64,000 nt of DNA from contig JBDREH010000036.1 in the NCBI GenBank assembly GCA_043819945.1, forward strand, positions 82 through 64,081, in the 5' to 3' direction. This DNA is from Bacillota bacterium (GTDB taxonomy: Bacteria > Bacillota_I > Bacilli_A > Acholeplasmatales > Acholeplasmataceae). Each line of letters begins with the position of its first letter. Position 1 is the first letter of the stretch. The translations under genes were made by a program, and so were the position numbers. Positions 16,605 through 36,555 of the stretch are shown piece by piece. The notes below the pieces were generated by a model, which was given only the letters and a program-made list of their open reading frames with translations, ran no database searches and was not told where the DNA came from.

Positions 16605-16910
16605 ATGCGAATTGAAAGACATCCAATTTTAGATTTTCCGAAAAAGCAAGCGATTTTTTTTATGTTTGAAGGCGAAAAAGTGATGGGATTTCATGGGGAT
16701 ACGATTGCTTCAGCACTTCATGCTTTAGGCATAAAAACACTCAGCTATAGTATCAGTAAAAATCGTCCACGAGGCTTTTACTGTGCAATCGGAAATTGTG
16801 CTTCATGCAATATGATTGTCAATGGAGTTCCCAATGTTAGAACATGCATAACATCCCTTGAAGAAAATATGATTGTTGAAAGACAAATCAACAAGGGGGT
16901 AATCAAATGA
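16605..16910 (+). CDS. (2Fe-2S)-binding subunit of flavin amino-acid dehydrogenase complex
   Basis: GDTIASALHA...RPRGFYCAIGNCASC...VRTC; similar to the sarcosine oxidase alpha N-terminus / Fer2_4. Confidence 0.88.
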   Translation: MRIERHPILDFPKKQAIFFMFEGEKVMGFHGDTIASALHALGIKTLSYSISKNRPRGFYCAIGNCASCNMIVNGVPNVRTCITSLEENMIVERQINKGVIK

Positions 16911-17998
16911 CCTATAAAGACTTGATCATTATTGGTGGTGGGCCATCAGGTCTATGTGCAGCTAAAACTGCTTTGGAAGCTGGAATCTCTGTTTTGATTA
17001 TTGATCGCAGTGAAAAACTCGGTGGTCAACTTGTCAAGCAAACTCATAAATTCTTTGGTTCTAAGGATCAGTATGCAAAAACTAGAGGATTTGATATTGC
17101 AGAGAAATTAGTTAAAGATTTGAAAAATTATGAAAATTTGCAGATATTGATTAATGCTACTGTTGTTGGATTGTATAAAGATAAGGTTGTCACTGTTTTA
17201 AACAACGAAAAATATGTGAGATATCAAGCGAAATCAATCATTGTTGCTACTGGAGCAAGTGAAAAGTTTTTGGCTTTTGAAAATAATGATTTACCTGGAA
17301 TCTATGGAGCTGGAGCTACACAAACGCTCATGAATAATTATGGAGTTCTACCTGGAAAAGAAGTTGTCATGATAGGAAGTGGGAACATTGGTCTTATTGT
17401 TTCCTATCAGCTAATGCAAGCCGGAGTCAAGGTCAAAGCCATCATTGAAGCTTCACCTACCATCGGAGGGTATAAGGTTCACGCTTCAAAAATGACTAGA
17501 CTAGGTGTTCCAATCTTGACATCAACAACAGTCAAAAAGGCAATTGGAGAAACAGAAATTAAGGCAATTGAAATCGTATCTTTAGATGAGAAATGGCAAG
17601 AATTACCTAATACGAGTCGAATCATTGAAATTGATGCTCTTTGCATTTCAGTCGGGCTATCACCAATGCATCAACTTTTATCGATGGTTGGAGCTCGCAT
17701 GAAATTTGTTTTTGAACTAGGTGGATTTGTTCCTATTATCGATGATAACAACCAAACAACACAAGACTCCATATTTGTTTGTGGTGATGCTGTAGGTATT
17801 GAAGAGGCAAGCTCAGCAATGATGGAAGGTTATATGACTGGACTGTTTGTTGCCAAACACTTGAATCATCCCCATCCAAATCATGAAAAATTAATTCAAT
17901 ACTATGAAGAACAACTCAAATTGCTAAGAGATGGTCCATTTGGAGAAAAGACTAAAGTAGGACTCAGTAAATTAAAAGAAGGTGACACACATGCTTAA
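16907..17998 (+). CDS. FAD/NAD(P)-dependent oxidoreductase subunit
   Basis: IIGGGPSGL, LGGQL, VATGA, GSGNIGL, GDAVGIEEA motifs. Confidence 0.88.
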   Translation: MTYKDLIIIGGGPSGLCAAKTALEAGISVLIIDRSEKLGGQLVKQTHKFFGSKDQYAKTRGFDIAEKLVKDLKNYENLQILINATVVGLYKDKVVTVLNNEKYVRYQAKSIIVATGASEKFLAFENNDLPGIYGAGATQTLMNNYGVLPGKEVVMIGSGNIGLIVSYQLMQAGVKVKAIIEASPTIGGYKVHASKMTRLGVPILTSTTVKKAIGETEIKAIEIVSLDEKWQELPNTSRIIEIDALCISVGLSPMHQLLSMVGARMKFVFELGGFVPIIDDNNQTTQDSIFVCGDAVGIEEASSAMMEGYMTGLFVAKHLNHPHPNHEKLIQYYEEQLKLLRDGPFGEKTKVGLSKLKEGDTHA

Positions 17999-18473
17999 TC
18001 ATAGAGGTATACCGACAAAAGCACAAGTGCTGTCAAGATTTCCTGATGCAAAAGCATTATTGCGTCCAAAAGCAATTCTCGAGTGTTATGAAGATATTCC
18101 TTGTAATCCGTGTGAAACAAGCTGTCCTTTTGATGCAATTTCGATAGGATCTAATATAAATCTACAACCACAATTGATTGTTGAGGCATGTACAGGTTGC
18201 GGTATTTGTGTGACTAGCTGTCCTGGACTGGCAATTATTGTTGCACAGATCATAAAAGATCAAGCAATGTTCAAACTTCCTTATGAATTTTTACCTTATC
18301 CAAAAAAGGATGAAATATGGCATGGTATCAATCGCAGTGGTGATGTCATCTGTGATGCGAAAATCCAAAGTGTTTTATTCAATAAAAAACAAGATCATAC
18401 CTTGCAGGTTACAGTTTTAGTACCTATAGATTACCTTTATAATTTTGTTACCATAAGAGCTAAACATGAATAA
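17991..18473 (+). CDS. 4Fe-4S dicluster ferredoxin-like subunit
   Basis: C..DIPCNPCETSCP and CTGCGICVTSCP; RBS supports ATG 17991. Confidence 0.88.
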   Translation: MLNHRGIPTKAQVLSRFPDAKALLRPKAILECYEDIPCNPCETSCPFDAISIGSNINLQPQLIVEACTGCGICVTSCPGLAIIVAQIIKDQAMFKLPYEFLPYPKKDEIWHGINRSGDVICDAKIQSVLFNKKQDHTLQVTVLVPIDYLYNFVTIRAKHE

Positions 18474-18747
18474 GCATAATATCATTATTTGTCGTTGTGA
18501 AGACATCACTTTACAACAAGTTCATGATTTACTTGAAGAAGGATATACAACCTTTGAAGATCTAAAGCGACTTTTACGAGTTGGCATGGGACCATGCCAA
18601 GCAAATACATGTGGGCATCTCATTCAAAGAGAAATAAGCAAGTATTTACAGGTCCCGGTTGAAGATGTTGCTATCCAAAAAGTTAGACCTATGACAATGG
18701 GCGTGCTACTCAAGATGATTGCGGAGGATCAAGAAGATGAAAACTAA
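18466..18747 (+). CDS. BFD-like (2Fe-2S) subunit
   Basis: ICRCEDIT...GMGPCQANTC...RP motif. Confidence 0.88.
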   Translation: MNKHNIIICRCEDITLQQVHDLLEEGYTTFEDLKRLLRVGMGPCQANTCGHLIQREISKYLQVPVEDVAIQKVRPMTMGVLLKMIAEDQEDEN

Positions 18748-19882
18748 CGTATTGATCATCGGTGCAGGTATCAGTGGTGTTAGTATCGCTTATAATCTTG
18801 CTAAAAAGGGTGTAAAAGCCATTCATGTCATTGATAAGGGGTATTTCACAAATGGAGCTACAGGACGCTGTGGTGCTGGTGTTAGACAACAGTGGGCGAC
18901 TGAAATCAACTGTGTTCTAGCGAAAATGAGTATAGAATTCTTCTCAAATGCAAAGAAAATACTAAAATATGAAGGCGATCTGGAGTTCAAACAGGAAGGC
19001 TATCTAATTCTTGCTACGACTCAAGATGAGCATGATCAGTTTACTAAAAATATAATGCTACAAAATTCACTGGGCATCCCATCCAAACAATTGACGGTTG
19101 AAGAGGCATTAAAAATTGTGCCACATTTAAATCCCAATGCTTTTATAAGTGCTACATTTTGTCAGACAGATGGTCATTTGAATCCATTTAAGATAACAGA
19201 AGCATATTACTTGGCTGCAAAGCGACTGGGTGTCACATTTTCCTTTTTTGAAGAAGCAGTTACGATTAAAACTCTTGAACACAAAATCGTTGAGGTTGTA
19301 ACCAATAAAGAAGTTTATCAAACAGAAACTGTTGTCAATGCTGCAGGTGGATATGCAAAAGAAATCGGAGATCTTGCTGGTATAGAGATTCCTGTCTATT
19401 CAGAAAATCATGAAATACTTGCTACGGAACCTATTGAAAAAATGCAAGGACCTATGGTCATTTCATTTTCTAAAAACATTTATTGTCAGCAAGTACCACA
19501 CGGTTCATTTTTGATTGGTAGAGGCACACCAAATGTTCCTCAAGGACATGATACGGAATCTTCATGGCAATTTTTAGATGAAATAGCAAAAACTGTGGTT
19601 GATGTCGTACCACTCATTGGCAATCTTCGTGTGATTAGGCAATGGGGAGGATCTTATAATATGTCTCCTGACCGTCAACCTATCATCAGTGATACGGATC
19701 AACTTGAAGGTTTCTACATGGCATGTGGATTCAGCGGTCATGGATTCATGTTTGCACCGATGACAGGATTATTATTGAGTGAAATGATTTTAAACGAAAA
19801 GCCAACAGTTGATATGACTTCACTTCATTTAGATCGTTTTAAGAATATAGATGTAAATCATATTGAAAAATCAGTTGTATAG
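18737..19882 (+). CDS. DAO-family FAD oxidoreductase, probable L-proline dehydrogenase catalytic subunit
   Basis: IIGAGISG, GATGRCGAGVRQQW, MSPDRQPII, GFSGHGFM; sits next to P5C dehydrogenase. Substrate is inferred. Confidence 0.75.
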   Translation: MKTNVLIIGAGISGVSIAYNLAKKGVKAIHVIDKGYFTNGATGRCGAGVRQQWATEINCVLAKMSIEFFSNAKKILKYEGDLEFKQEGYLILATTQDEHDQFTKNIMLQNSLGIPSKQLTVEEALKIVPHLNPNAFISATFCQTDGHLNPFKITEAYYLAAKRLGVTFSFFEEAVTIKTLEHKIVEVVTNKEVYQTETVVNAAGGYAKEIGDLAGIEIPVYSENHEILATEPIEKMQGPMVISFSKNIYCQQVPHGSFLIGRGTPNVPQGHDTESSWQFLDEIAKTVVDVVPLIGNLRVIRQWGGSYNMSPDRQPIISDTDQLEGFYMACGFSGHGFMFAPMTGLLLSEMILNEKPTVDMTSLHLDRFKNIDVNHIEKSVV

Positions 19883-19897
19883 AAAGGGAGTAATCAT

Positions 19898-21454
19898 ATG
19901 GCGATTTATACTTATCAGACAGAACCACTAACAGATTTCACAAACAAAGAGAATATCAAGAAGTATGAACAAGGATTAGCGATTGTTCAAGGGTATTTAG
20001 GGAGACATTACGATCTCATCATTAATGGAGAACGCATTAAAACCACTAAATCAATGACATCCTTAAATCCATCTGATTTTAAGGAATTTGTTGGTACCAT
20101 CTCACAAGCATCAAGAATTGAAACAAATCTTGCGATTGAATCTGCTCTTCGAGCATTTGAAACTTGGAAATATACCAAACCAGAAATAAGAGCTGATGTT
20201 TTATTTAAATCTGCAGCGATCATCAGAAGAAGAAAATTTGAATTTAGTGCATTAATGACCAAAGAAGCAGGCAAACCATGGCCTGAAGCTGATGCGGATG
20301 TTGCAGAAGCGATTGATTTTCTTGAATATTATGGACGTCAAATGATTGTACTCAACCGAGTAGACGACGCTGTTTTGAGTAGAAGAAATATCGAGCGCAA
20401 TGAATATAAATATATTCCACTTGGTGTTGGTGCGATCATTTCACCCTGGAATTTTCCTTTAGCAATTCTTTCGGGGATGACTTCTGCAGCAATTGTATCA
20501 GGGAATACTGTACTGCTTAAACCAGCAAGCACGACTCAAGTCATCGCATATAAATTCATTGAAGTTCTCGAAGAAGCAGGATTGCCAAACGGTGTTGTCA
20601 ATTTCTTACCTGGAAGTGGTGCTGAAATTGGTGATTATATCGTTGAACATCCCAAAATTAGATTCATTTCCTTTACAGGTTCTAAACAGGTTGGTATGGG
20701 AATATATGAAAAAGCAGCAAAAGTAAATCCAGGTCAGATATGGTTGAAAAGAGTCATTGCTGAAATGGGTGGTAAAGATGCAATTGTTGTCGATCGTGAA
20801 GCTGATCTTGATTTAGCTGCGGAATCAATTGTCAAATCTGCCTTCGGCTTTTCCGGTCAAAAGTGCAGTGCATGTTCAAGAGCAATTATCCATGAGGATG
20901 TTTATGATGTCGTCATTGAAAAGATGGTTAAGCTCACTGAACAGATTAAAGTAGGAAACCCTGAAGAACAAAGTATCTTTATGGGACCCCTAAATGACAA
21001 GAAAGCTTTTGAAAAGGTGACTTCGTATTTTGATATCGGTCATCGTGAAGGCAAATGTGTTATTGGTGGTAAGGCTAATCAATCAGTTGGTTACTTTGTA
21101 GATCCAACCATTTTCATTGATTTAGATCCTAATTCCACTCTAATGCAAGAAGAAATATTTGGACCGATTTTAGCTGTCTCTAAAGTAAAATCTTTTGATG
21201 AAGCCATTAAGGTCGCCAATAATACCGAATACGGTCTCACTGGATCAGTGATATCTAAAAACCGGATGCATTTGGAACAAGCAAGAAGAGATTTCCATGT
21301 TGGTAATCTCTATTTAAACCGCAAATGTACAGGAGCAATCGTGGGTTACCAACCTTTTGGTGGTTTCAACATGAGTGGAACTGACTCAAAAGCTGGTGGT
21401 CCAGATTATTTGATATTACACATGCAAGGTAAATCCGTATCTGAAGCACTATAG
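19898..21454 (+). CDS. pruA: L-glutamate gamma-semialdehyde (P5C) dehydrogenase
   Basis: ALDH motifs [38 protein letters not shown], and the RocA/PruA-type end [20 protein letters not shown]. Confidence 0.93.
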
Positions 21455-21490
21455 AAAGACGAATATCAATATTTGACTAAAACAAAAGCA

Positions 21491-21535
21491 TTAAAAAAAG
21501 ACAAAGACTTGTTTACTCAGTTTTTGTCTTTTTAA
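21491..21535. terminator. Bidirectional terminator between the two catabolic operons
   Basis: ttaaaaaaagacaaagact...agtttttgtctttttaa. Confidence 0.75.
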
Positions 21536-22794
21536 TAGAATTCTTTTCGGATTAAGTTTAGAAAGATAGCAACAATAAGTAAATCAGCTGCTCCACCAAA
21601 GCTAATATGCTTTTGAATCATTTTTTTGTTAAAAGCTTTGAGTTGATTGATTTGAGTCACGTCAGTTTGTTTTAACTCTTCTTTAATCTCGTTATAATTT
21701 TCAATATTACCAGCTCGCTTGAGAAAGACAGTGTCTTCTGAAACTAAAATAAGGTATTTGAGCACATTCCTCAATGTTAAATCTTCATCATCAGTTAAGA
21801 GCTTCATGGCTGATTGGACTGATGAAATCCCCCGATAGGCTTCCCCACGTATACCTGTCATTTTATAGGTCTGATATGCTTTATGTCCTGCAGTTAATTG
21901 ATCTTTTTTGAAATCATCTAGGATCGTTTCAGAGATGATTTTGACGTTTGAATAAATACCATAAAAATCTTGTTGGTGACTTAAAGCATATCCTGTTGCA
22001 AGAAGCGCAAGTCCTAAAATGAAAATTAATCCTTTATATGCGTTAACCCCTTGAGTCATCTGTAACATTTCTTGCTCCGCAGCTATTCCTATGGGTCTTG
22101 TTTGCTCAAGAAGGTTACTTAGATGATCAGAAGTAAACCCAACTTCAAAAAGATCAACAAGATATGGCAGAATTGCTTTTTCAGCTTTCACCATCAATAG
22201 GTAATCCATATCCTGATGAGACCCTTGAGAACTCTTGCTAACAAGACCAAACTTGTCATCTAGATTTAATTCAGTAATGATTGCTTGATGAACGATTTTA
22301 GTGACGATATTTCTTAAATATGACCTAACCTGATTTTCAATAAAACCGATTAATGAATCCACAGGATGAGTTTGATTTCTCGAACAAAATAAAGCATCTT
22401 GATTACATAGATAACATTTACGATTTGGGATATGTAAATCAGTTCTTGATAAAGAAAATTGATTCAAATGAAAAACATCTAAATCGATAAAACGGCCTAA
22501 TGGATGGGTTTCTTCAATCATTACCATATGCTTTTTAATATCAAGCGAATTATTTGTATCCACTGCAAATAAACAATAAGGACCATCAGGACTTACTTTT
22601 ATTTCTGCTTTTTTCAGCGGATATAGATTTTGAATTTTCAGACAAAACAAGCGCACCAATAGATGCGCTTCACGGATATTTTTATTTGTACCAGGTATAT
22701 TGGCTTTGACAAGAATGATTGTATTATCTGGAGTCATTAGATGATTGATCTCATTGAGTCTATTTTCGCGTGCATCTAGCGGATCATTTTTCAT
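21532..22794 (-). CDS. citXG: CitX-CitG fusion (prosthetic-group synthase and holo-ACP synthase)
   Basis: N-terminal GRFIDLDV...RKCYLC (CitX) and C-terminal KGLIFILG, GIRGEA, SFGGAADLL (CitG); ATG 22794 overlaps citC stop. Confidence 0.85.
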   Translation of the reverse strand: MKNDPLDARENRLNEINHLMTPDNTIILVKANIPGTNKNIREAHLLVRLFCLKIQNLYPLKKAEIKVSPDGPYCLFAVDTNNSLDIKKHMVMIEETHPLGRFIDLDVFHLNQFSLSRTDLHIPNRKCYLCNQDALFCSRNQTHPVDSLIGFIENQVRSYLRNIVTKIVHQAIITELNLDDKFGLVSKSSQGSHQDMDYLLMVKAEKAILPYLVDLFEVGFTSDHLSNLLEQTRPIGIAAEQEMLQMTQGVNAYKGLIFILGLALLATGYALSHQQDFYGIYSNVKIISETILDDFKKDQLTAGHKAYQTYKMTGIRGEAYRGISSVQSAMKLLTDDEDLTLRNVLKYLILVSEDTVFLKRAGNIENYNEIKEELKQTDVTQINQLKAFNKKMIQKHISFGGAADLLIVAIFLNLIRKEFY

Positions 22795-23785
22795 CAAAAA
22801 TTGCCTTACCTTTAGATGATTTGAGATAGCGATATGTAACATTTGGAACATAGGATTTCAATACTTCATATTGATGATCTTTTGCTAGTTTTCTAACAAG
22901 TGAAGCACTGACTGTAACTGAATTCTTTTCTAAACGGTTGATGACAATCAACTGATCTTTCAGGATTTGTTTCATTGTTTCATTATAGGCATTTGTTGTA
23001 GGGTCTAGGGGTTCATCACCTACATATCTATAGTCAATTTCAAAGATTCTCATAAAGAAATGAAGGAAAATAGAAATATCAAGTTCCATAAAGAGTAAAG
23101 AAACCTCGTTTAATTCTTTTAGAAAGTAGGTTGGAAAAGTAGCTGAAGAAATGATATATTCCGTTGAGGGAAGTATATGAACATTAGTCATATGTTTTGT
23201 TGCTTTTTTCAAGAGCATCATCCGAGTTTCGAAAGAAAAAACAGATTTGTTTTCCTCAACTAAAAAGATGATAACATGATCATTACTTTTGGCACATGTT
23301 TCAATCAGATATAGATGTCCTAAAGTCACTGGATTACAGTTCATGACAATGGCAGCCTTTGTTCCATGAGATAAAGCTAAATCATTTTTCAGTTTCGTTA
23401 ATTTTTCTTCAATGGTATTGATATTGTTTTCAAACATAACAATCTTCTGATTCTCATAGATAAGTGAAAAAGCGAAATCAACAAAATAATGTTTACTTTC
23501 TTGTGTAGTAAAAAGAAAGTACTTTTCAATACCTTTTGCATTCAGTCTTTGGATTAAGGTTGTTAAAACAAGTGCCGTTAAATTTTCTCCTTGATAAAAA
23601 GAATCAATAGCAATCATTTTAATCACATTCTCATAAAGAGACCCAGTAGCTATCAATTGATTTTCATCATAGAATCCAATGGAAAGAGTAACCTTGTCTT
23701 CGAAACGAAGTCCTTGTTTTTCAAGTAACTGTTTCACATCTTCAAGTTCTTTTGGAGTGATACAATCTCTCATCTGATAATTCAT
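22784..23785 (-). CDS. citC: [citrate (pro-3S)-lyase] ligase homolog
   Basis: GNAT-like N-terminus; AIVMNCNPVTLGHLYL, YIISSATFPTYFLKE, RYVGDEP, VSASLVR. Confidence 0.92.
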   Translation of the reverse strand: MNYQMRDCITPKELEDVKQLLEKQGLRFEDKVTLSIGFYDENQLIATGSLYENVIKMIAIDSFYQGENLTALVLTTLIQRLNAKGIEKYFLFTTQESKHYFVDFAFSLIYENQKIVMFENNINTIEEKLTKLKNDLALSHGTKAAIVMNCNPVTLGHLYLIETCAKSNDHVIIFLVEENKSVFSFETRMMLLKKATKHMTNVHILPSTEYIISSATFPTYFLKELNEVSLLFMELDISIFLHFFMRIFEIDYRYVGDEPLDPTTNAYNETMKQILKDQLIVINRLEKNSVTVSASLVRKLAKDHQYEVLKSYVPNVTYRYLKSSKGKAIFDEK

Positions 23786-25308
23786 GAATGATCACTCCTA
23801 AGTTTATATATACTGTCGATGATTGTTCCATCCCGATAACGAACCACTCCTACCACTTGATCATCATGCAAAATAGATTGAGGATTACCAATCATTTGAT
23901 GTGCTTTGTTTAGCAAATCTTCAATCGTCAAAATTTTTAACTCCGAATGTTCAAGCTTCTTTAAAAGATCAGTTCTTTTAGGATTGATCGCAATACCTCT
24001 TTCAGTCACAAGACAATCGATAGACTCTCCAGGTGTTGTTACTGTTGTGACTTGCGCCTTAACCATGGAGGTTCTCGATTTCATCAAGTTGGTCGTGATG
24101 ATGGAAAGCTTTGCACCATAAGCGGTATCTGCATGACCGCCAGATCCACCAATTATTTTTCCTTTTGAATCGGTTGTAACATTGACGTTGAAATTTAAAT
24201 CAATTTCAGTTGCACCTAAAATAACAATATCTAAATCATTTACCATCGCTGATTTCTCCAGTGGATTTGCATACTTAGAAGCACTCATGAATTGATGATT
24301 TGGATTTCTTTTCAGTGAAGAAATAGCTTCATGATCAAAACACTGAACGTCGTATAATCGCTTAAATAAGCCAATTTCGTGCATCTCTACTAAGTAACTT
24401 GTAATACCACCAGAGGCAAATGATCCCTTGATGTTATGTTTAATCATGCTCTTTTTTAGTTCTTCAGCAACAGCTAGACTGGTACCGCCAGCTCCAGTTT
24501 GAAAACTCATATTTTGTTTTAAGTAACCCAGTTCTTCAATTAAGCGCGCTGTATCTTTGGCAATCTTGAGCTGAACTGGATCTCTTGTAGGTTTCGTAGT
24601 ACCAGAAACGATACCAGAAGCATCCCCAATCTTATCGACATTAATAATATAGTCAATATATTGGGCCTCAATTTCAATAGGGTCAATCTTGTTAACTAAA
24701 TGATCAGTGATGACTACTTTATGTTTTGCATAGAGCATATCAGCAATTGCATAACCTAATGTGCCACATGCATTTGGACCATCAATACCATTACCGTTAC
24801 CTTCATCATCACTATTTGGAACTGCGATAAATGCCACATCAATAATCAATTCTCCTGATTCGATCGCTCTTGGTCGTCCGCCATGTGTATCCATGACAAG
24901 TAAGTCCATTAAATATCCTTGACAGATAGCATCAGCAACCGGTCCGTTGATATAATTCGTATATATTTGAGTTACATTCTTATTTTTGATGAGTTCTACA
25001 AGAGGTTCATGAACCGGAAAAATGGCACTAGGAGCAAGTGTCATATTTGTTAAATTACGCTTTTTAATTTCTTCGAAAACCATATTCATGATACCATCAC
25101 CATTTCTCAAATGATGATGAAAAGAAAGAGTCATCCCATCATGAATGGGTATCATATCAAATAACTTTGATAGATTTTCGACTGATTTCTTGGTGTTTGT
25201 TGTCAACACTTTAGAAATTAAAGGTCTTTTTTTAATTTTAAGGAAATGATCAGCACCTTGATAAGGAATCATCCCTAAAGGTACATGACGATTCAAAGAG
25301 TTATTCAT
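23782..25308 (-). CDS. citF: Citrate/citramalate lyase alpha subunit (acyl-ACP transferase)
   Basis: SFHHHLRNGD, THGGRPRAIESG, FQTGAGG, FNVNVTTDS.G.IIGGSGGHADTA, VTTPGE. Confidence 0.92.
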   Translation of the reverse strand: MNNSLNRHVPLGMIPYQGADHFLKIKKRPLISKVLTTNTKKSVENLSKLFDMIPIHDGMTLSFHHHLRNGDGIMNMVFEEIKKRNLTNMTLAPSAIFPVHEPLVELIKNKNVTQIYTNYINGPVADAICQGYLMDLLVMDTHGGRPRAIESGELIIDVAFIAVPNSDDEGNGNGIDGPNACGTLGYAIADMLYAKHKVVITDHLVNKIDPIEIEAQYIDYIINVDKIGDASGIVSGTTKPTRDPVQLKIAKDTARLIEELGYLKQNMSFQTGAGGTSLAVAEELKKSMIKHNIKGSFASGGITSYLVEMHEIGLFKRLYDVQCFDHEAISSLKRNPNHQFMSASKYANPLEKSAMVNDLDIVILGATEIDLNFNVNVTTDSKGKIIGGSGGHADTAYGAKLSIITTNLMKSRTSMVKAQVTTVTTPGESIDCLVTERGIAINPKRTDLLKKLEHSELKILTIEDLLNKAHQMIGNPQSILHDDQVVGVVRYRDGTIIDSIYKLRSDHS

Positions 25309-26179: not shown

Positions 26180-26426
26180 CACTCATCCTTCTTATAGCAG
26201 TCAATAATCTAGCTTTAATCGTATAATCTAGTGCTCCCTTGTCATTTATGGTTACATGGATATTTTTTATGTTGAGCTCTTTTAAAGTGTCTTGAATCAC
26301 TCTATTAATCTGATCTTTAAATTGATCATACACAATGCTTTTAATATCGATAGTCATGCCTGTTTGTTTTTTTACGGTAATTAAGCAATCATTTGATTCA
26401 AATGTACCAGCTGATGCTATTTTCAT
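26166..26426 (-). CDS. citD: Citrate/citramalate lyase acyl carrier protein
   Basis: AGTFESND (prosthetic-group Ser), DKGALD...KARL.TA. Confidence 0.92.
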   Translation of the reverse strand: MKIASAGTFESNDCLITVKKQTGMTIDIKSIVYDQFKDQINRVIQDTLKELNIKNIHVTINDKGALDYTIKARLLTAIRRMSDDHA

Positions 26427-26434
26427 CAAATCAC

Positions 26435-29148: not shown

Positions 29149-29158
29149 AATTTTTCTC

Positions 29159-30541
29159 CTAAATTTCAGTGATGTGTTTCTTCATAATTTTCAAAGCTAT
29201 TTCAGGATGATCCATGCTTAAAAGACCCATTGCTGACAAAATATAAGCTTTATCGAGTAAGAATTTTGGTGCTTTTGGTCTTAACTCCATGGATCTGCTT
29301 TCAATTTTTGTTGCTCTTTTCAGCATCTTAACAGGATCTTTACTGCTGATGACAACACCACCAGTTCCTATGAAGTAATTTGCCTTTGTTAAATCCTTGC
29401 CAACTTGATAATACATAATTCCCATAGGTGTATAAACACCTTTAAGTGTACCTACGTGTCTTGAGGTTGCTGTATCTATACATCTTGCAGCAAGGATGTC
29501 ATCAACGATATAATCATGATCAGATTCAGAAATAAAATCAATATGCTTAAATCTATTCGTTGCTTCCATGACTATATCAATGCCCTTTTTATTGAAATGG
29601 CTAATCTCAGAGGGGCTCATTGCACTTAAAACTCCAAGGGCAGAATAGCGCATACCCAAATCACCTTCAACTGTTCTTTTTGCAAATGGCTCTTCGAGTC
29701 CACTGAGTAGCGCATTCATCTGAGTAGGTAAACCAGCAGCCATTGAATAGATGTCTGTGGTTGCACCACCAACATCAGCAATCATTAAATCACCTAACCC
29801 TGATTCATTGTCAAAACCCGTCGAAAGTAGTTCTGCAGCCATTAATACGGCATTTGGAGTTGGCACAACCACTCTATCGATGGTTTTCTCTATTTTTTTG
29901 ATTCCTTTTGCTTCTATAATATTTTTAACAAATATTTCCTTGATTTTATCTTTAGCACTGTTAATGTTCAACACATTAAGACGTGGCATTACATTTTCAC
30001 AAATATAAAAATCCTTTTTTGCAGCTGATAGAATTTCTGTTATTTCATCTGCTGCATCTTTATTTCCAGCAAATACAATAGGTGCAATGACTGAAGAATT
30101 TGCCAGTTTTTTGGCATTATGAATGACACATTCAGAATTTCCTCCATTTGCTCCTCCAGCAAGTAGCACGATATCTATATTCTTATCTAGAATACTTTGA
30201 ACTTCGGCATTATTGATATTATGTGACAAAACAAGCTCAACCTTGGCTCCAGCACCTAGACAAACTCTAGTGGCAGCTTCGGTTGTCAGTTCTTCAACTA
30301 GACCAATTGCGACCATCTTTAAGCCGCCAGCAGCAGAAGAGCAAGCAATAATTCGATCAAAATCGATTTTTGATCCAATTTTCTCATATAGTCTTTCCAA
30401 AGCCTTTTCATACCCAATAACAATATTGGTATCTACAGTAGTTATCGCTTTAGAAGTAGCAATGATATCTTCACGATCCAAATCCACAGCTGTCAATTTC
30501 GTGAATGTTGATCCAAAATCAACCAATAAGTAATTAGGCAT
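29159..30541 (-). CDS. glmL: Glutamate mutase accessory/reactivating protein (MutL/GlmL)
   Basis: [41 protein letters not shown]; located between the S and E subunits. Confidence 0.93.
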
Positions 30542-30948
30542 TATGATTCTCCCAAATCTTCTTTAATCGTTTGCAAAACATCGTCAATTGTGACACCTGG
30601 TGGATAAATACGATCAAATCCCATATCCTTGAATCGCTTTTCAACTTCTATAAAATCTTGTTTGCCAACAACGATATTTCCTCCAACATACAATAAAACA
30701 CCATCAAGCCCAGCCTCATTACATTTATCTCTCATGCCACGGCAATCCAGTTCACCATGCCCGTATAAGGATGAGACTAAAATTAAATGAGCCGATGTTT
30801 CAATCGCTGCATTTATAAAATCCTCTTGAGACGCTAACACTCCAACGTTGACTACGTTGTATCCTTCTCGTGTTAACGTGTACTCAATGATTCTATTTCC
30901 GACAGCATGAACATCAGCTCCGATAACGCCAATAACTATGGATTTCAT
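30541..30948 (-). CDS. glmS: Glutamate mutase S (cobalamin-binding) subunit
   Basis: DVHAVG (DxHxxG), SSLYG, GG B12-binding motifs; GGAGGA RBS gives ATG 30948. Not glucosamine synthase. Confidence 0.97.
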
Positions 30949-30995: not shown

Positions 30996-31090
30996 ATAAA
31001 ACGTTTTCACACACTTGTATTTTAATACAAAGAGCAAAAAAAAACAACAGTTATCCGTTGTTTTGCGTTTAAGATTTTTAATGATATAAT
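30996..31090. promoter_or_regulatory. Divergent promoters of glm-mal-cit and fum operons, with cre-like site
   Basis: Minus strand: TTGTTT(31047-42)-17-TAAAAT(31024-19) then TGAAAACGTTTT (31009-30998). Plus strand: TTGCGT(31063-68)-16-TATAAT(31085-90) with TG. Confidence 0.6.
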
Positions 31091-31107
31091 ATGTGTAGGT
31101 GAAATGT

Positions 31108-31947
31108 ATGAGAAATGTGGATATTAAAGAGATAACAAACACGATCAAAGCCCTTGCTTTGGATGCGAATTGCAACATTGGAAAATCATTTATTGATGAG
31201 CTTAGAGAAGCAATAAAAAAAGAGAAATCCGAGATAGGGAGAAATGTTTTAGAGCAAATTATCGAAAATGATGAAATTGCTCTTGAAGCACATGAACCGA
31301 TGTGTCAAGATACGGGCATGGTGGTTGTTTTTTTAGAAGTTGGATATGATGTTCATTTCAACGGTGATGTCTATGATGCCGTCAATGAAGGTGTCAGACA
31401 AGCCTATCATGAAGGACTGCTTCGCAAGTCTGTTGCATTGCATCCCATTTCTCGTGGAAATACAAACGATAATACTCCTGCAATTATTCATATCAAATTG
31501 GTAGACGGCAACCAAATAAAAATCACACTCGCCCCTAAGGGTGGAGGAAGCGAAAATATGAGTCTCGTTAAAATGCTCATCCCATCTGATGGGATTGAGG
31601 GCATTAAAAAATTGGTGCTTCACACCATTTTTTATGCTGGAGGCAAACCTTGTCCACCGCTTGTTGTAGGGATTGGTATTGGGGGTAACCTAGAAAAATC
31701 AGCATTGATTGCAAAAGAAGCATTAATGCGTGATTTACATGACATTAATCCCGATCCTATTCTTGCTCAACTTGAGACGGAATTACTAGAAGAGATTAAT
31801 CGATTGGGAGTTGGTCCGATGGGATTTGGAGGCACAACAACGGCTTTAGCAGTTAAAATTGGTGCTTATCCTTGCCATTTCGCTTCTTTACCTATTGCGA
31901 TTAACATTCAATGCCATGCTTCAAGACATAAGTCAATCATGCTATAG
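31108..31947 (+). CDS. Class I Fe-S hydro-lyase alpha subunit (fumarase/tartrate dehydratase family; probable mesaconase)
   Basis: PMCQDTG, DNTPA, KGGGSEN, KPCPP, GPMGFGG, PCHFASLP...CHA. Confidence 0.9.
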   Translation: MRNVDIKEITNTIKALALDANCNIGKSFIDELREAIKKEKSEIGRNVLEQIIENDEIALEAHEPMCQDTGMVVVFLEVGYDVHFNGDVYDAVNEGVRQAYHEGLLRKSVALHPISRGNTNDNTPAIIHIKLVDGNQIKITLAPKGGGSENMSLVKMLIPSDGIEGIKKLVLHTIFYAGGKPCPPLVVGIGIGGNLEKSALIAKEALMRDLHDINPDPILAQLETELLEEINRLGVGPMGFGGTTTALAVKIGAYPCHFASLPIAINIQCHASRHKSIML

Positions 31948-31957
31948 GAGGTATGAA

Positions 31958-32509
31958 ATGAAACTAAAAACACCGATTACAAAACATGATATCCTAAATA
32001 TGAAAGTTGGAGATATTATCTATATAACTGGAACGCTTTATACTGGACGTGATGCTGCACATAAGCGTATGGTTGAAGCTCTTGAATCAGGATTTGAGCT
32101 TCCCATTGATTTTTCCGGTCAGGTCATTTACTATACAGGACCGACCCCGTCAAAACCGAATCGTCCAATTGGCTCATGTGGTCCAACTTCTAGTTATCGA
32201 ATGGATGCATACAGCCTACCTTTAATGAAAAAAGGGCTTAAGGTCATGATTGGCAAAGGTGACAGAAGTGATGCCTTTATTAAAGACATGATTGAACAAA
32301 AAGCTGTTTATTTACAAGCAGTTGGTGGAGCCGGAGCACTTTTATCAAGAAAAGTGGTCAAGAGTGAAGTGGTTGCCTATCCTGATTTGGGAGCTGAAGC
32401 AATTTATAAGCTTGAGGTTATCGATTTTCCTGCTATTGTTACCTACGATGTATATGGTGGTAATCTAATTGTTGATGAAGTTAAAAAATATCGAAATATT
32501 CAATTTTAA
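31958..32509 (+). CDS. Class I Fe-S hydro-lyase beta subunit (probable mesaconase)
   Basis: GRDAAHKR, GPTSSYRMD, IGKG, GGAGAL, DLGAEAI; GGAGG RBS gives ATG 31958. Confidence 0.9.
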   Translation: MKLKTPITKHDILNMKVGDIIYITGTLYTGRDAAHKRMVEALESGFELPIDFSGQVIYYTGPTPSKPNRPIGSCGPTSSYRMDAYSLPLMKKGLKVMIGKGDRSDAFIKDMIEQKAVYLQAVGGAGALLSRKVVKSEVVAYPDLGAEAIYKLEVIDFPAIVTYDVYGGNLIVDEVKKYRNIQF

Positions 32510-32555
32510 ATTTTTAATACATAGACAGTTAATAGATAAATGAACGAGGTTGACG

Positions 32556-33095
32556 ATGAAAGAAGAGACCAAAACAAGCAGAAAAGTATATGAATGTTCA
32601 TTCATGGAGATTTATGAAGATGAGGTTATTCTGCCTAATCAAAATTTAAGTCAAAGAGTCTATATTAAACACCCTGGAGCAGCTGCTATTTTACCTATAA
32701 CTAAAGATAATAAAATCATATTGATCAAACAATATCGATATCCGATTCATAGCATTAGTTTAGAAGTTCCAGCAGGCAAAAAAGATAATCTATCTGAAGA
32801 CAGCTATGCATGTGCAATGCGTGAATTAGAAGAAGAAACAGGACACATCTCTAGTGAAATGAAATTTCTAAATAGAATTTATCCCTGTGTTGGATATTCT
32901 AACGAATATATTGATTTATTTATTGCGGAAAATTGCATGAGAAAAATAGATCCAAAGTCAATGGACGAGGATGAAAGCATTGAAAGTGTTTTTTTCAGTC
33001 TTAGTGAAATCAAGCAAATGATAGCTACAAATCAAATCACCGATGGCAAGACATTAATTCTCTTGCAATCCTATTTATTGATGGTAAAACCATGA
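32556..33095 (+). CDS. NUDIX hydrolase (ADP-ribose pyrophosphatase-like)
   Basis: EVPAGK...AMRELEEETG Nudix box; HPGAAAI; QYRYP. Confidence 0.9.
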   Translation: MKEETKTSRKVYECSFMEIYEDEVILPNQNLSQRVYIKHPGAAAILPITKDNKIILIKQYRYPIHSISLEVPAGKKDNLSEDSYACAMRELEEETGHISSEMKFLNRIYPCVGYSNEYIDLFIAENCMRKIDPKSMDEDESIESVFFSLSEIKQMIATNQITDGKTLILLQSYLLMVKP

Positions 33096-34240
33096 AAAAA
33101 AGAAGAATTGATCGACAACAAGACCTAATAATGTCTATACTTAGACCGGTCGTTCGAATTTGGATGCGTATGGATGCTAAACGAATGGTTCATCTTGGAG
33201 ACGGTGTGAGTTTAAAGAGAAAAGAGCCCTACATCTTGCTAGCAAATCATACTTTTTTGTTTGATGTCATCCACGTGCCACTCAGATTAAAAAATGTTCC
33301 CTTTATCGTCGCTTCTCAGACATTATTTAAAAAACAACCCACAAAATTTTTAGTCACACAGGTTGCTCATGTCATTCCTAAATCAAAAGGGGCAAGCGAT
33401 ACATCAACCGTTAGAGATTTAATTGGTTCTATTCGTAGAGGCTACCCGATACTCATCTTCCCAGAAGGTGATACGACTTTCTATGGTGAGACTGGGTATA
33501 TCGAAGAGTCAACGATGAAACTCATCAAAAAACTTGGAGTAGATGTCGTAACATGTCACGTTAAAGGTGGATATTTATCAAAGCCTAGATGGGCAACTGG
33601 AAAAAGGAAAAATCGTCAAATAAGACTTGAATATGAACTTACCATACCTAAGGAAAAAATTACAGATTTGAGTCTTGCACAGATTAACGATATCATCAAA
33701 AATGCATTATTTCATAATGATTATCAATATCAAAGAACAGTCATGATTCCTCATCCAGGTAAGAAACTAGCTGAAGGTATTGAAAATGTTGTTTATGTCT
33801 GTCCTTTTTGTGAAGCCATCAATACGATTGAATCAAAAGGAAATACTTTAAAATGCAGTGCTTGCAGGCATGAAGGCAAAATGGATTCCTATGGTTTTAT
33901 TCAAGATTTTAGGTTTGACAATCTGATTGACTGGAACAACTATCAAAAAAAATTTTCAAGCAAACTTCGGGAAGCAACCATCAAATCGGTTGGCTTTCTA
34001 AACTATTTAAGTAAAGAAGACGATCATCTAGAACCTATCGGTCAAATTGAAATTGATTATCATGATTATCAATTTCACATATCAGGTGCGCTATCCTTAG
34101 AGATCCCTATCAATGAGATTACAAATGCAACGATAACCTTGAGAAGGGATTTTGGATTTGTCTGGAATCAGCGTCATTATTTAATCAAATTAGAACGATT
34201 TGGAGCATCACTTCTCCGTGTTGTCCAAGATAAATATTAA
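33092..34240 (+). CDS. Lysophospholipid acyltransferase family protein
   Basis: NHTFLFD (NHx4D) and IFPEG; CPFC zinc-ribbon-like C-terminal part. Confidence 0.85.
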   Translation: MKKRRIDRQQDLIMSILRPVVRIWMRMDAKRMVHLGDGVSLKRKEPYILLANHTFLFDVIHVPLRLKNVPFIVASQTLFKKQPTKFLVTQVAHVIPKSKGASDTSTVRDLIGSIRRGYPILIFPEGDTTFYGETGYIEESTMKLIKKLGVDVVTCHVKGGYLSKPRWATGKRKNRQIRLEYELTIPKEKITDLSLAQINDIIKNALFHNDYQYQRTVMIPHPGKKLAEGIENVVYVCPFCEAINTIESKGNTLKCSACRHEGKMDSYGFIQDFRFDNLIDWNNYQKKFSSKLREATIKSVGFLNYLSKEDDHLEPIGQIEIDYHDYQFHISGALSLEIPINEITNATITLRRDFGFVWNQRHYLIKLERFGASLLRVVQDKY

Positions 34241-34329
34241 ATTGTGATTATGACTAGACATTGTATATATATCTAGGCGTATAATAGAATTAAAGTTACG
34301 AAGAATTGAATAAAAGGAGCGCTTTAAAA

Positions 34330-35367
34330 ATGGAAATGACAGCAGTGATTAAAGAATCCAGAGAACCTGGTTTTAAGATTGTAAAAAAGCAGGTCCCAGA
34401 TGTTTTAGGTCCAAATGAAGTTTTGATTAAAGTACTAGCCACATCGATTTGTGGGACAGATGTCCATATCTATAAATGGGACCGATGGAGTCAAAATCGG
34501 ATCAAACCACCACTTACTGTCGGACATGAATTTAGTGGCAGAGTTTTAAAAATTGGAAGCAGTGTTAAACAAGTCAAGGTTGGAGATATTGTTTCAGCTG
34601 AGACGCACATCGTTTGTCACGAATGTGAGTTTTGCCGTAGAGGTGAATATCACATTTGCAAAAACACAAAAATTATCGGTGTGGATACAGATGGTTGTTT
34701 TGCAGAATATGCAAGAATGCCAGCTGAAAACTTGATTATCAATCATGCAGATGTGGATCCCAAGTATTTATCAATTCAGGAACCATTAGGCAATGCAGTT
34801 CACACCATGCTTCACTTTCCAATAACAGGTAAAACAGTGGCAATCGTTGGTTGTGGACCCATCGGAATGATGGGTGTTAACATTGCTAAAGTTGTTGGAG
34901 CCAGTAAGATTATTGCTATCGAAATCAATGATTATCGGATTAAGCTTGCAAAAGAACTTGGGGCCGATGTCATTATCAATCCACTCAAGGAAAATGTCAT
35001 TACTCGTGTGTTAGAAGAAACCGATGGCATGGGTGTAGATATTGTTGCAGAATTTTCAGGAAACAAACAGGCTATTGAGGATTCCTTTAAATATGTCAAG
35101 GCTGGCGGGAAAATGTCAATGCTTGGTATTACTCCACAAAATATCGAATTCGACTTATCTAACGATGTCGTTTTCAAAGGGATAACAATTTATGGTGTTG
35201 TAGGCCGTATATTACCCGAAACATGGCAACAGGTTACTGGCCTTGTTGAAAGTGGTAAATTGGATTTAGAAAAGATTGTTACACATACTTTTTCACTTAC
35301 ACAAATGGATGAAGCGATGCAAATCATGATTTCAGGAAATAGTGGGAAAGTTGTATTAATTCCATAA
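34330..35367 (+). CDS. tdh: L-threonine 3-dehydrogenase
   Basis: ICGTDVHIY.WD.W, GHEF, CHECEFC...C, QEPLGNAVHT, GCGPIG; adjacent to kbl. Confidence 0.95.
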   Translation: MEMTAVIKESREPGFKIVKKQVPDVLGPNEVLIKVLATSICGTDVHIYKWDRWSQNRIKPPLTVGHEFSGRVLKIGSSVKQVKVGDIVSAETHIVCHECEFCRRGEYHICKNTKIIGVDTDGCFAEYARMPAENLIINHADVDPKYLSIQEPLGNAVHTMLHFPITGKTVAIVGCGPIGMMGVNIAKVVGASKIIAIEINDYRIKLAKELGADVIINPLKENVITRVLEETDGMGVDIVAEFSGNKQAIEDSFKYVKAGGKMSMLGITPQNIEFDLSNDVVFKGITIYGVVGRILPETWQQVTGLVESGKLDLEKIVTHTFSLTQMDEAMQIMISGNSGKVVLIP

Positions 35368-35382
35368 ACAAAGGAGGATATT

Positions 35383-36555
35383 ATGTCATATCTACTATTA
35401 AGGGTTAATGAACTTAAAGCAGATGGTGTTTATCGCAAGTTGCCAATTAATGATGGTCCTTGTGATGCCGTAATCAAGCTTAACGGAAAACCAGTTATCA
35501 ACCTTTCGTCCAATAATTATTTAGGATTTGCAAATCATCCTAGAATCAAAAAAGCTGCAAAGGACGCAATCGATAAATTTGGTGTCGGATCCGGTGCAGT
35601 GCGCACGATTGTGGGGAATATGACGATTCATGAAGAACTTGATCGTTTAATAGCACGCTTTAAACATGAAGATGCTGCTGTAGTGTTTCAATCGGGATTC
35701 GCAACTAATGCAGGAGTGATTCAAGCAATAACCGATGAGCATGACTTGATTGTCTCAGATGAGCTGAATCACGCTTCAATTATCGATGGAATCAGGTTAT
35801 CTAAGGCTAGCAGAGCCGTATATAAGCATAGCGACATGGCAAGTCTCGAGACTGTATTAAAAGAAAGAAGAGAACATTATCACAATGTATTAATCATTAC
35901 TGACGGTGTTTTTTCGATGGATGGTGATATTGCAAAATTACCTGAAATTGTTAAATTAGCTAAAAAATATAAAGCATTGACGTATGTTGACGATGCACAT
36001 GGATCAGGTGTTCTTGGTCGTTCAGGCAGAGGCACTGTCGACCACTTTGGTCTCCACGGACAGGTCGACTTCATCGTAGGAACTTTGTCCAAGGCTATTG
36101 GTGTTGTTGGTGGTTATGTATGTGGATCTTTAGCCATGCGTGACTGGTTATTGCACAGAGGAAGACCATTATTGTTTTCAACAGCCATGATGCCTTCTGC
36201 AGTTGCAGCCATTATTGAAGCATTTCACATGCTTGAAGAATCTACAGATTATACCGACAGATTATGGGATAATGCTCGTTATTTCAAAAAAAAATTGGTT
36301 GAACATGGATTTGACATTGGTCAAAGTGAAACACCCATCACACCTATCATGATTGGCGATGAAAGTACAACGATGGAGTTTTCTAAGAATTTGCTTAAAT
36401 ATGGCGTGTTCGTCTCAGCCATTGTTTTCCCCACTGTACCCAAGGGTAAGGGAAGAATTCGTTGCATGGTATCAGCATTACATTCCAAAGAGCAATTGGA
36501 TAAAGCAGTTGAGATTATTTACAAGACTGCAAAGAAAATGGAATTAATTGCCTAG
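35383..36555 (+). CDS. kbl: Glycine C-acetyltransferase (2-amino-3-ketobutyrate CoA ligase)
   Basis: [39 protein letters not shown]. Confidence 0.92.

Follow-up and report, generated by a model that had tools for sequence, protein, structure and literature searches.

Positions 16605-36555 of the window (the whole stretch of DNA analysed, 64,000 nt of contig JBDREH010000036.1 in assembly GCA_043819945.1) hold a 20-kb gene cluster that is probably a conserved catabolic supercluster, in which proline would be converted to glutamate and glutamate to pyruvate and acetate, together with a cleavage of threonine. The source organism is uncultured. Its genome (1.58 Mb, 36 contigs, 99.97% complete, ~33% G+C) is that of a free-living wall-less mollicute of the Acholeplasmataceae, congeneric with Peloplasma aerotolerans. 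Genes were called from a listing of open reading frames (ORFs) together with Pfam and NCBIfam profile scans, for the latter with the curated NCBIfam cut-offs, and the scans bore out the gene content and coordinates of the original prediction, which had been made from the letters and the ORF list. Every gene of the cluster is single-copy in the host genome. Four transcription units were distinguished: pdh-p5cdh, encoding the five-ORF proline dehydrogenase homologue and 1-pyrroline-5-carboxylate (P5C) dehydrogenase; glmS...citXG; mesAB-nudix-acyltransferase; and tdh-kbl.

The pdh-p5cdh unit consists of six co-directional genes on the plus strand, tightly packed or overlapping, and begins behind the terminator of gpx:

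16434..16456, plus strand: terminator hairpin of gpx, left boundary of the pdh unit (terminator scan; hairpin and T-run in 9 orthologous spacers)
16587..16910, plus strand: [2Fe-2S] subunit, Fer2_4 (PF13510, E 1.6e-25)
16907..17998, plus strand: body of the alpha subunit, Pyr_redox_2 flavoprotein (PF07992, E 1.3e-35)
17982..18473, plus strand: gamma-like ferredoxin subunit (Fer4 family matches)
18466..18747, plus strand: delta-like small subunit, BFD-like [2Fe-2S] (PF04324, E 8.6e-11; SO_alpha_A3, E 2.9e-8)
18719..19882, plus strand: beta (catalytic) subunit, DAO family, candidate L-proline dehydrogenase (PF01266, E 2e-63)
19898..21454, plus strand: P5C / L-glutamate gamma-semialdehyde dehydrogenase (TIGR01237, 772.5 bits, cut-off 659.65; NF002852, 850.2 bits, cut-off 648)

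The likely start of the Fer2_4 ORF is the ATG at 16605, which gives 101 aa, also the median length of its orthologs; the ORF contains the motif C66-x4-C71-x2-C74-x12-C87. The Pyr_redox_2 ORF matched 1Y56_A (PH1363) with E 3e-24 and has two dinucleotide-binding motifs, GGGPSG (residue 10) and GSGNIG (residue 157). The gamma-like subunit has eight cysteines for Fe-S clusters (C35/C41/C44/C48 and C70/C73/C76/C80), which would suffice for two [4Fe-4S] clusters, and the delta-like subunit has the motif C9-x-C11-x32-C44-x4-C49, so that all Fe-S and dinucleotide-binding motifs of the complex are intact. The beta subunit matched the beta subunit of the Pyrococcus horikoshii L-proline dehydrogenase (1Y56_B) with E 8e-70 over residues 8-364 (357 residues), whereas the next-best solved relative, the sarcosine oxidase beta subunit SoxB, gave E 1e-31; it is a far better match to the former than to sarcosine or glycine oxidases. 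NCBIfam returned only subfamily-level soxA/soxB matches for the pdh ORFs, all below the cut-offs. In the archaeal L-proline dehydrogenase the gene order is pdhA-pdhF-pdhX-pdhB (PMC4364671), and the order (Fer2_4 / flavoprotein)-ferredoxin-small protein-DAO protein in the window is colinear with it. In bacterial relatives, a separate [2Fe-2S] subunit is the counterpart of the first ~120 residues of the archaeal alpha subunit (PMC4575208). Taken together, these matches indicate that the five ORFs encode a homologue of the archaeal alpha-beta-gamma-delta L-proline dehydrogenase, with the alpha subunit split over two overlapping ORFs.

For the substrate, we relied mainly on the gene that follows. 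Among the 80 closest loci encoding the DAO-family beta subunit, which came from Acholeplasmataceae, Mariniplasma, Peloplasma, Izemoplasmatales, Haloplasma and other small-genome Bacilli, p5cdh followed pdhB in 69; the remaining 11 had no p5cdh match, most of them ending near pdhB. Because of this constancy the product is expected to be P5C and the substrate L-proline; that is, the five-ORF complex would oxidize L-proline to P5C. The original prediction had set such an oxidative route apart from Stickland proline reduction. In the host genome, neither a PutA-type Pro_dh (PF01619) nor a match to PF09338 (glycine/proline reductase) was detected, although the latter result does not establish absence, all 14 control genomes being equally silent.

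The second and third units contain a complete candidate gene set for the methylaspartate pathway. The minus-strand order glmS-glmL-glmE-mal-citDEF-citC-citXG converges on pdh-p5cdh, and the mesAB unit is divergent from glmS:

21532..22851, minus strand: CitX-CitG fusion, for the prosthetic group of the lyase (PF03802, PF01874; TIGR03124, 116.5 bits, above cut-off)
22784..23785, minus strand: CitC-type lyase ligase, for thiol acetylation of the acyl carrier protein (ACP) (PF08218, E 5.5e-61)
23782..25308, minus strand: CitF-type alpha subunit, acyl-ACP:acid transferase (TIGR01584, 557 bits, cut-off 501)
25316..26182, minus strand: CitE-type beta subunit, candidate citramalyl-ACP lyase (TIGR01588, 253 bits, below the cut-off of 443)
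26166..26429, minus strand: CitD-type ACP (TIGR01608, 91.7 bits, cut-off 63.5)
26435..27679, minus strand: methylaspartate ammonia-lyase (MAL) (TIGR01502, 579 bits, cut-off 286)
27676..29148, minus strand: glutamate mutase subunit E, GlmE (TIGR01503, 731 bits, cut-off 390)
29159..30541, minus strand: GlmL (MutL), accessory/reactivating protein of glutamate mutase (NF040745, 593 bits, cut-off 475)
30541..30948, minus strand: glutamate mutase subunit S, B12-binding (NF002612, 209 bits, cut-off 110)
31099..31947, plus strand: class I fumarase-type alpha subunit, candidate mesaconase MesA (PF05681, E 4.8e-109; likely start ATG 31108)
31859..32509, plus strand: class I fumarase-type beta subunit, candidate mesaconase MesB (PF05683, E 6.7e-55; likely start ~31955)

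MAL, GlmE, GlmL and GlmS pass equivalog cut-offs. The true start of glmS is the ATG at 30948 behind GGAGG, as NF002612 aligns from residue 34 of the long ORF (which ends at 31047); similarly, the NF005310 alignment of MesB begins at residue 33. The lyase proteins gave a mixed result: CitX scored above its own cut-off, whereas the CitG part fell below the citrate-lyase-type cut-off and CitC reached 230 bits against the citrate-lyase cut-off of 262 (TIGR00124). With 253 bits against 443, CitE is not a typical citrate lyase beta subunit. Since CitE, CitC and CitG are all below these cut-offs, the cit and fumarase-type genes are sole copies in the host genome, and the cultured congener has no tricarboxylic acid (TCA) cycle, a citramalate lyase with MesAB as mesaconase appears to be a better fit than citrate lyase with fumarase. 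The set glmSLE-mal-mesAB-citDEF-citCXG is that of the cluster for glutamate fermentation published for Clostridia (Kronen et al. 2015, PMC4682846). The enzyme assignments of the original prediction hold, as does its view that the product of the first operon, L-glutamate, is the substrate of the second. In five genomes of one family (f8; G277, G328, G346, G485 and G355), glmE is interrupted by a single in-frame stop codon (TAG in four genomes, TAA in the fifth) and is otherwise full-length; such genes could be pseudogenes, sequencing errors or cases of recoding.

The two operons end on a single structure:

21495..21533, both strands: bidirectional intrinsic terminator, common to the two convergent operons (fold and orthologous spacers)

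A generic promoter/terminator scan was uninformative (79 promoter-like elements against 78 expected, 12 terminator-like against 11 expected), and phylogenetic footprinting of orthologous spacers was therefore used. The stop-to-stop spacer between the P5C dehydrogenase gene and citXG is 77 nt long and contains one hairpin, preceded by an A-run and followed by a T-run; it folded on the plus strand with -17.7 kcal/mol (z -3.1). The orthologous spacers of relatives (26 distinct sequences, 29-102 nt) likewise consist mainly of one hairpin flanked by A and T runs, and the stem sequences differ. This recurrence goes beyond chance and is good evidence that the hairpin acts as a bidirectional intrinsic terminator for both operons, as had been proposed. 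In one congener (L034 / L096, G004:C3) a 3.45-kb insert lies between the P5C dehydrogenase gene and citXG, where the others have the hairpin only.

We next consider how the two operons are distributed. The strongest support for a functional tie between pdh and glm comes from their co-occurrence, which was counted in 151 genomes of the family and in 399 genomes of the phylum. In the family sample, 51 genomes had glmE and 45 had the DAO subunit, with both in 43 and neither in 98. In the phylum sample, the DAO subunit was present in 36 genomes, all of one class and of 1.1-2.3 Mb, and glmE in 49, with the following counts:

pdhB present, glmE present: 33
pdhB present, glmE absent: 3
pdhB absent, glmE present: 16
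pdhB absent, glmE absent: 347

Accordingly, glmE was found in 33/36 (92%) of the pdh-positive genomes against 16/363 (4%) of the pdh-negative ones (Fisher's exact p ~1e-32, a value that ignores shared ancestry and the general lifestyle of amino-acid fermenters). The pair co-occurs across 8 families, even where unlinked: outside the family, glmE was found in 22 of the 24 pdh-positive genomes (from 19 genera), unlinked where the contigs allow a judgement.

Gene order was then compared among relatives. In the own genus (g1), the order pdh...p5cdh / citXG...glmS / mesAB-nudix-acyltransferase-tdh-kbl was present in 16/16 species fetched with sufficient flank (20-kb stretches; three of these loci run off the contig or the fetched stretch before kbl or tdh-kbl) and was kept even where the beta subunit had only 72% identity. 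Every ORF is intact and conserved, with 42-94% identity among the congeners, which argues for selection. A second linked arrangement, citXG...glmS / mesAB-nudix-pdh...p5cdh, was found in the sister genus g11 (L097, L045). In the complete genomes of genus g20 (L098-L100), by contrast with these linked forms, the cluster is split, with mesAB / citXG...glmS at ~500 kb from pdh...p5cdh-nudix-tdh-kbl, and in Izemoplasmatales the proline and glutamate mutase operons are hundreds of kb apart. The joint cluster expected from a synteny search was thus recovered in full in the congeners and in another form in g11, and was missing from g20 and Izemoplasmatales; unlinking in relatives, one part of what had been named as grounds for rejecting the proposal, occurs in those two groups and not in the congeners compared. 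The term 'island' is apt for a gene cluster. Its mobile-element sense was rejected, the order being vertically conserved in the genus and the flanks of the 20-kb cluster showing no mobility genes and no tRNA.

The remaining genes of the cluster lie downstream of mesAB:

32550..33095, plus strand: NUDIX hydrolase, ADP-sugar pyrophosphatase-like (PF00293)
33092..34240, plus strand: acyltransferase with PlsC-like domain (PF01553, E 8.5e-11; conserved in all g1 loci)
34306..35367, plus strand: L-threonine 3-dehydrogenase, Tdh (NF003808, 450 bits, cut-off 380; likely start ATG 34330)
35383..36555, plus strand: glycine C-acetyltransferase (2-amino-3-ketobutyrate CoA ligase), Kbl (NF005394, 512 bits, cut-off 460; TIGR01825, 571 bits, cut-off 535)

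Tdh, of the zinc alcohol dehydrogenase type, and the pyridoxal phosphate-dependent Kbl form a two-gene unit in which both proteins are past cut-offs (NF003808, NF005394), and Tdh is just below a further one (TIGR00692, 455.8 bits against 458.35). The fumarase-type genes had been described as being followed by tdh-kbl. The unit is indeed downstream of them, but not directly: the NUDIX and acyltransferase genes intervene, and tdh has a promoter of its own, with a conserved TATAAT box at 34280-34285 in a spacer of 65-90 nt. The link of tdh-kbl with the proline operon extends beyond the genus. In six loci of Izemoplasma (L061, L068, L071, L073, L075 and L077), tdh-kbl directly follows pdh...p5cdh, and the link is seen again in L099 of g20. 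On this distribution, the oldest linkage is that of pdh-p5cdh with tdh-kbl (and nudix) rather than with glm, and the arrangement in the window gives the impression that the 11-kb methylaspartate module was inserted between p5cdh and tdh-kbl. We know of no described reason for the association of the proline dehydrogenase with tdh-kbl, nor of an obvious metabolic one. The NUDIX gene is the most persistent companion in every arrangement, next to mesB in g1 and g11 and between p5cdh and tdh in g20. The acyltransferase has a paralogue on contig C9 of the host genome.

On these grounds, the following route can be proposed. The five-ORF L-proline dehydrogenase homologue would oxidize L-proline to P5C, and the co-transcribed P5C dehydrogenase would convert P5C to L-glutamate. 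Glutamate would be rearranged to 3-methylaspartate by adenosylcobalamin (AdoCbl)-dependent GlmSE with GlmL, deaminated by MAL to mesaconate and ammonia, and hydrated by MesAB to (S)-citramalate, which the CitDEF-type lyase, activated by CitC and CitXG, would cleave to acetate and pyruvate. Pyruvate:ferredoxin oxidoreductase (PFOR), phosphotransacetylase/acetate kinase and [FeFe]-hydrogenases encoded elsewhere would then yield ATP, CO2 and H2, and Tdh-Kbl would supply acetyl-CoA and glycine from threonine. Such a route would probably need low H2, as maintained by a syntrophic partner, or an energetic coupling to ferredoxin and NAD. We infer the substrate specificities (proline, mesaconate and citramalate), the flux from proline to mesaconate and the regulation from sequence. 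The host genome encodes PFOR and two [FeFe]-hydrogenases, as well as hutI, and has functions for the supply of AdoCbl, namely a PduO-type adenosyltransferase (C25:114938-115414) and its only cobalamin riboswitch (C25:82621-82795, 88 bits). The cultured congener P. aerotolerans M4Ah has PFOR, Pta-Ack, Rnf, an F-type ATPase and hydrogenases of groups A1 and A3; it lacks a TCA cycle, is deficient in vitamin synthesis, and was isolated from a methanogen enrichment (PMC11122141).

Several observations weigh against such a single catabolic route. The modules are unlinked in g20 and other families; in the family sample, glmE occurred without pdh in 8 genomes and pdh without glmE in 2; and the p value of the co-occurrence is subject to the effects of ancestry and lifestyle named above. 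The pdh and glmS promoters have different specific palindromes, with only a general cre-like box in common, and no transporter gene and no regulator gene was found within the cluster. The P5C/proline couple lies at about -120 mV, which makes the unaided reduction of NAD+ or protons impossible; consequently, the proline dehydrogenase needs another acceptor, very low H2, or a coupling to the oxidation of ferredoxin. P. aerotolerans M4Ah has no quinones, terminal oxidases or sulfur reductases, and did not grow in pure culture on glutamate, casamino acids, peptone or glycine (PMC11122141). This strain, which does not grow on glutamate, carries the identical cluster (L014 and L084 are the same sequence, and a genome assigned to the own genus is identical to the M4Ah record). 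The growth negatives would weigh against the route as a stand-alone energy source and would be compatible with co-metabolism or syntrophy. Furthermore, BjOpnDH2, from a subfamily close to the archaeal L-proline dehydrogenase beta subunit, is inactive on proline (PMC4575208), so that the substrate is not fixed by homology alone.

Some of these points would be explained if glutamate were a hub and the proline, methylaspartate and threonine modules were independent, joined in one genus by rearrangement. Proline-derived glutamate would then serve mainly nitrogen supply, biosynthesis or other sinks, and the methylaspartate pathway would be fed by uptake, histidine and other sources. We regard this as unlikely, if still a real possibility. 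The unlinked modules and the differing specific operators fit it, as do the older linkage pdh-p5cdh-(nudix)-tdh-kbl, the hutI gene of the host and the presence of glm without pdh in 16/399 genomes; a KorAB-like oxidoreductase 0.4-7 kb from pdh in 8 Izemoplasmatales loci suggests another fate of glutamate. Independent modules are, however, at odds with the frequencies of glmE in pdh-positive and pdh-negative genomes (92% vs 4%), with two independent linked arrangements (g1 and g11), and with a hairpin-only convergent junction kept in at least 26 species.

The nature of the substrate raises a further alternative, namely that the five-subunit flavoenzyme acts on hydroxyproline, pipecolate, sarcosine or another N-alkyl amino acid, an opine or a D-amino acid, and the aldehyde dehydrogenase on the matching semialdehyde. 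DAO-family heteromers do include HCN synthase, D-hydroxyproline dehydrogenase and opine dehydrogenases, in addition to BjOpnDH2 with its inactivity on proline (PMC4575208); the NCBIfam soxA/soxB matches are subfamily-level and sub-cut-off; and proline leaves the adjacency of the glycine-producing tdh-kbl (Izemoplasma, g20) unexplained. Nevertheless, this appears very unlikely, since the partner enzyme passes the equivalog cut-off for P5C dehydrogenase and is in the operon in 69/80 loci, the best solved homologue is a proven L-proline dehydrogenase, the gene order is that of the archaeal operon, and the genome has no other proline dehydrogenase. That the cluster is largely cryptic or runs in reverse, for example in the use of mesaconate or citramalate or in glutamate synthesis from pyruvate and acetate, is hardly probable at all. 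In principle, each enzyme from MAL to the lyase can work in both directions, and the cultured congener lacks growth on glutamate; on the other hand, P5C dehydrogenase is effectively irreversible, the intact ORFs and their identities across the genus imply selection, the cre-like boxes fit catabolic control, and the organisation resembles known clusters of glutamate fermenters. We therefore retain the supercluster for proline, glutamate and threonine catabolism as the favoured reading.

With regard to the electron acceptor within this route, the complex would carry two flavin adenine dinucleotides (FAD), probably flavin mononucleotide (FMN), two [2Fe-2S] and two [4Fe-4S] clusters, and a second dinucleotide site of the NAD(P) type. 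This inventory led us to consider that the five subunits form a flavin-based electron-confurcating proline dehydrogenase, in which the oxidation of reduced ferredoxin would pull proline oxidation towards NAD+, a rather unlikely arrangement at present. Such a mechanism has been reported for the lactate dehydrogenase/Etf complex of acetogens. If confurcation were true, proline could be fermented to 2 acetate + CO2 + NH4+ + ~3 H2 in quinone-free wall-less anaerobes living beside H2 consumers, and the long-open question of the acceptor of archaeal dye-linked proline dehydrogenases would be answered. A thiolase locus at C2:62535 was considered as a butyrate electron sink and rejected, as no bcd/etf lies nearby (read by eye); the thiolase gene neighbours an SDR gene, a KAS-III-like gene and a Liv-type ABC transporter.

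Footprinting of the promoter regions gave the following candidate elements:

16519..16529, plus strand: cre-like box TGAAAGCGTTT upstream of pdh (ATGwAAGCGTTTT in 9/9 orthologous spacers)
16547..16566, no strand: palindromic operator candidate TATCATAT-N4-ATATGATA over an extended -10 box, TGATAAGAT (orthologous-spacer alignment)
30999..31009, minus strand: cre-like box TGAAAACGTTT upstream of glmS (same orientation relative to the operon as the pdh box)
31015..31030, no strand: candidate specific operator TTGTATT-N2-AATACAA in the glmS-mesA divergent spacer (arms invariant in 18 orthologous spacers)

The cre-like box of pdh lies ~20 nt upstream of the palindrome TATCATAT-N4-ATATGATA, whose arms co-vary in L006 and L014 (CACAT/ATGTG) and which occurs once in the genome. 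At the glmS box, AAAACGCTTACAT is kept in those orthologous spacers that cover it, and related TGTAAGCGCTT boxes stand before tdh in several relatives, not in the window. The operator TTGTATT-N2-AATACAA is unique in the genome at 0 mismatches. A genome-wide search for both palindromes, each of them unique, pointed out no regulon partner and no regulator gene.

The cre-like boxes correspond to the left half and the centre of the Firmicute cre (TGWAARCG). A genome scan for TGWAARCGYTT found 14 boxes, 12 of them intergenic before catabolic or glycolytic genes. This number is no enrichment, ~10 being expected (an estimate from base composition); the weight of the box comes from its cross-species conservation and from the 12/14 intergenic positions. 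The 14 boxes mark a putative small regulon, with the targets gapA, a sugar ABC ATPase, a pullulanase-like pair, phosphoglycerate mutase, tryptophanase/malic enzyme, an amino-acid dehydrogenase, ortAB, thiolase, sufC, and the pdh and glm operons (several assigned by eye, some confirmed by profile). The best LacI-family protein of the genome scored 288 bits, below the CcpA cut-off of 442. An Rfam scan of 13000-38000 at E <= 0.1 gave no riboswitch, T-box or other known RNA, and regulation by a known RNA element is therefore not indicated. From these elements we infer a common catabolite control via the cre-like box combined with separate specific repressors.

The surroundings of pdh vary among relatives. 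In 12-14 congeners (L007-L012, L017-L033), genes for MarR, ribD, ribBA and a HAD phosphatase (riboflavin synthesis) lie directly upstream of pdh, the HAD gene ending 120-180 bp before it; this arrangement is absent from the window. The KorAB-like 2-oxoacid:acceptor oxidoreductase mentioned above was found in L044, L048, L049, L050, L054, L058, L067 and L080, which are of the Izemoplasmatales type, and its alpha subunit scored 559 bits against a cut-off of 411 (NF006412). A MocR/PdxR-like regulator is upstream of pdh in 7 loci, and in 7 other loci an unassigned amidohydrolase gene takes this place, at a distance of 93-137 bp (762 bp in one). At 13998-15812 the window encodes a channel-like 604-aa protein with two N-terminal transmembrane (TM) helices and a weak RCK-like match, whose gene adjoins gpx and pdh across the genus and lies downstream of p5cdh in g11. 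It was rejected as an amino-acid carrier on account of its 2 TM helices and the weak RCK-like match.

Further B12-related genes are located on contig C25. A second B12-dependent cluster, kamDE-pduO-ord-ortAB-oraSE-glmL-like (C25:112556-122182), includes genes for the alpha and beta subunits of lysine 5,6-aminomutase and for 2,4-diaminopentanoate dehydrogenase; all six proteins scanned (KamD, KamE, PduO, Ord, OrtB and OraE) are above NCBIfam cut-offs, and a cre-like box stands in front of ortA. As the kam/ora cluster adds to glutamate mutase, this 1.6-Mb mollicute has three AdoCbl mutase systems. At C25:80646-85105, the cobalamin riboswitch lies after hutI and a cyclodeaminase-like gene and before three genes, encoding a 393-aa lipoprotein, a 158-aa membrane-anchored protein and a 181-aa polytopic membrane protein, none of which has a Pfam match. 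These riboswitch-linked genes may constitute an undescribed B12 uptake system.

Every enzyme family of the cluster is known, and the methylaspartate cluster is textbook knowledge, whereas the combination and the host were not found described in the literature. The same is true of a bacterial archaeal-type proline dehydrogenase with split alpha subunit in an operon with the P5C dehydrogenase gene, of the near-obligate co-occurrence of pdh and glutamate mutase across wall-less Bacilli, and of B12-dependent modules for amino-acid fermentation in relatives of mollicutes. Acholeplasmataceae, Izemoplasmatales and Haloplasmatales are described as fermenters of sugars and nucleic acids, and no literature link of these groups to glutamate mutase, the methylaspartate pathway or proline dehydrogenase was found. 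If the proposed route is correct, amino-acid fermentation would be a core trait of wall-less lineages, which would make them dependent on the B12 of their neighbours. The findings also extend the archaeal-type proline dehydrogenase to bacteria, where it shares a defined operon with the enzyme that acts after it, and the lack of quinones in the cultured congener sharpens the question of where enzymes of this type pass their electrons. With an identical cluster available in culture in P. aerotolerans M4Ah, these predictions are directly testable.

Among known systems, the archaeal L-proline dehydrogenases of Thermococcus profundus and T. litoralis (pdhA-F-X-B) and the alpha4-beta4 enzyme of P. 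horikoshii (PH1363/PH1364, PDB 1Y56) come closest to the first unit. They share with it the DAO-family beta subunit, a Pyr_redox_2 alpha subunit with a [2Fe-2S] N-terminal module, the ferredoxin-like gamma subunit, the small delta subunit and the gene order, and they likewise occur in anaerobic peptide-using hosts; the gamma and delta ORFs were likened to PdhF and PdhX by domain type and position alone. The mollicute version differs in being bacterial (from a wall-less lineage of Bacilli), in having the alpha subunit split into two ORFs, and in having the P5C dehydrogenase gene in the same operon. PutA and PutB-PutC (putBCP of B. subtilis) catalyse the same two steps from proline via P5C to glutamate, and their P5C dehydrogenase belongs to the same RocA/PutC-type family (TIGR01237). 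However, the first enzyme of the mollicute is an unrelated DAO-family/Fe-S heteromer rather than a Pro_dh TIM-barrel (PF01619), and a quinone-linked respiratory chain that could take up the electrons is lacking in the cultured congener. Amino-acid-fermenting Clostridia likewise use proline anaerobically, by the Stickland D-proline reductase (Prd), but this enzyme works in the opposite redox direction, with proline as the electron acceptor that is reduced to 5-aminovalerate. The tdh-kbl operons of E. coli and Bacillus comprise the same two genes and form glycine and acetyl-CoA by the same reaction; in the mollicute lineages, unlike in these bacteria, the unit recurs beside the proline dehydrogenase operon. 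Finally, the methylaspartate cluster of C. tetanomorphum and C. tetani (PMC4682846) has the same gene set, including the candidates for the two-subunit mesaconase and for the citrate-lyase-like citramalate lyase with its activation genes, and the same dependence on AdoCbl. The mollicute cluster is distinguished from it by its host of 1.6 Mb, by the absence of a GntR regulator from the cluster, by the failure to find a butyrate branch beside the thiolase gene, and by being joined to a proline-to-glutamate operon and to tdh-kbl.

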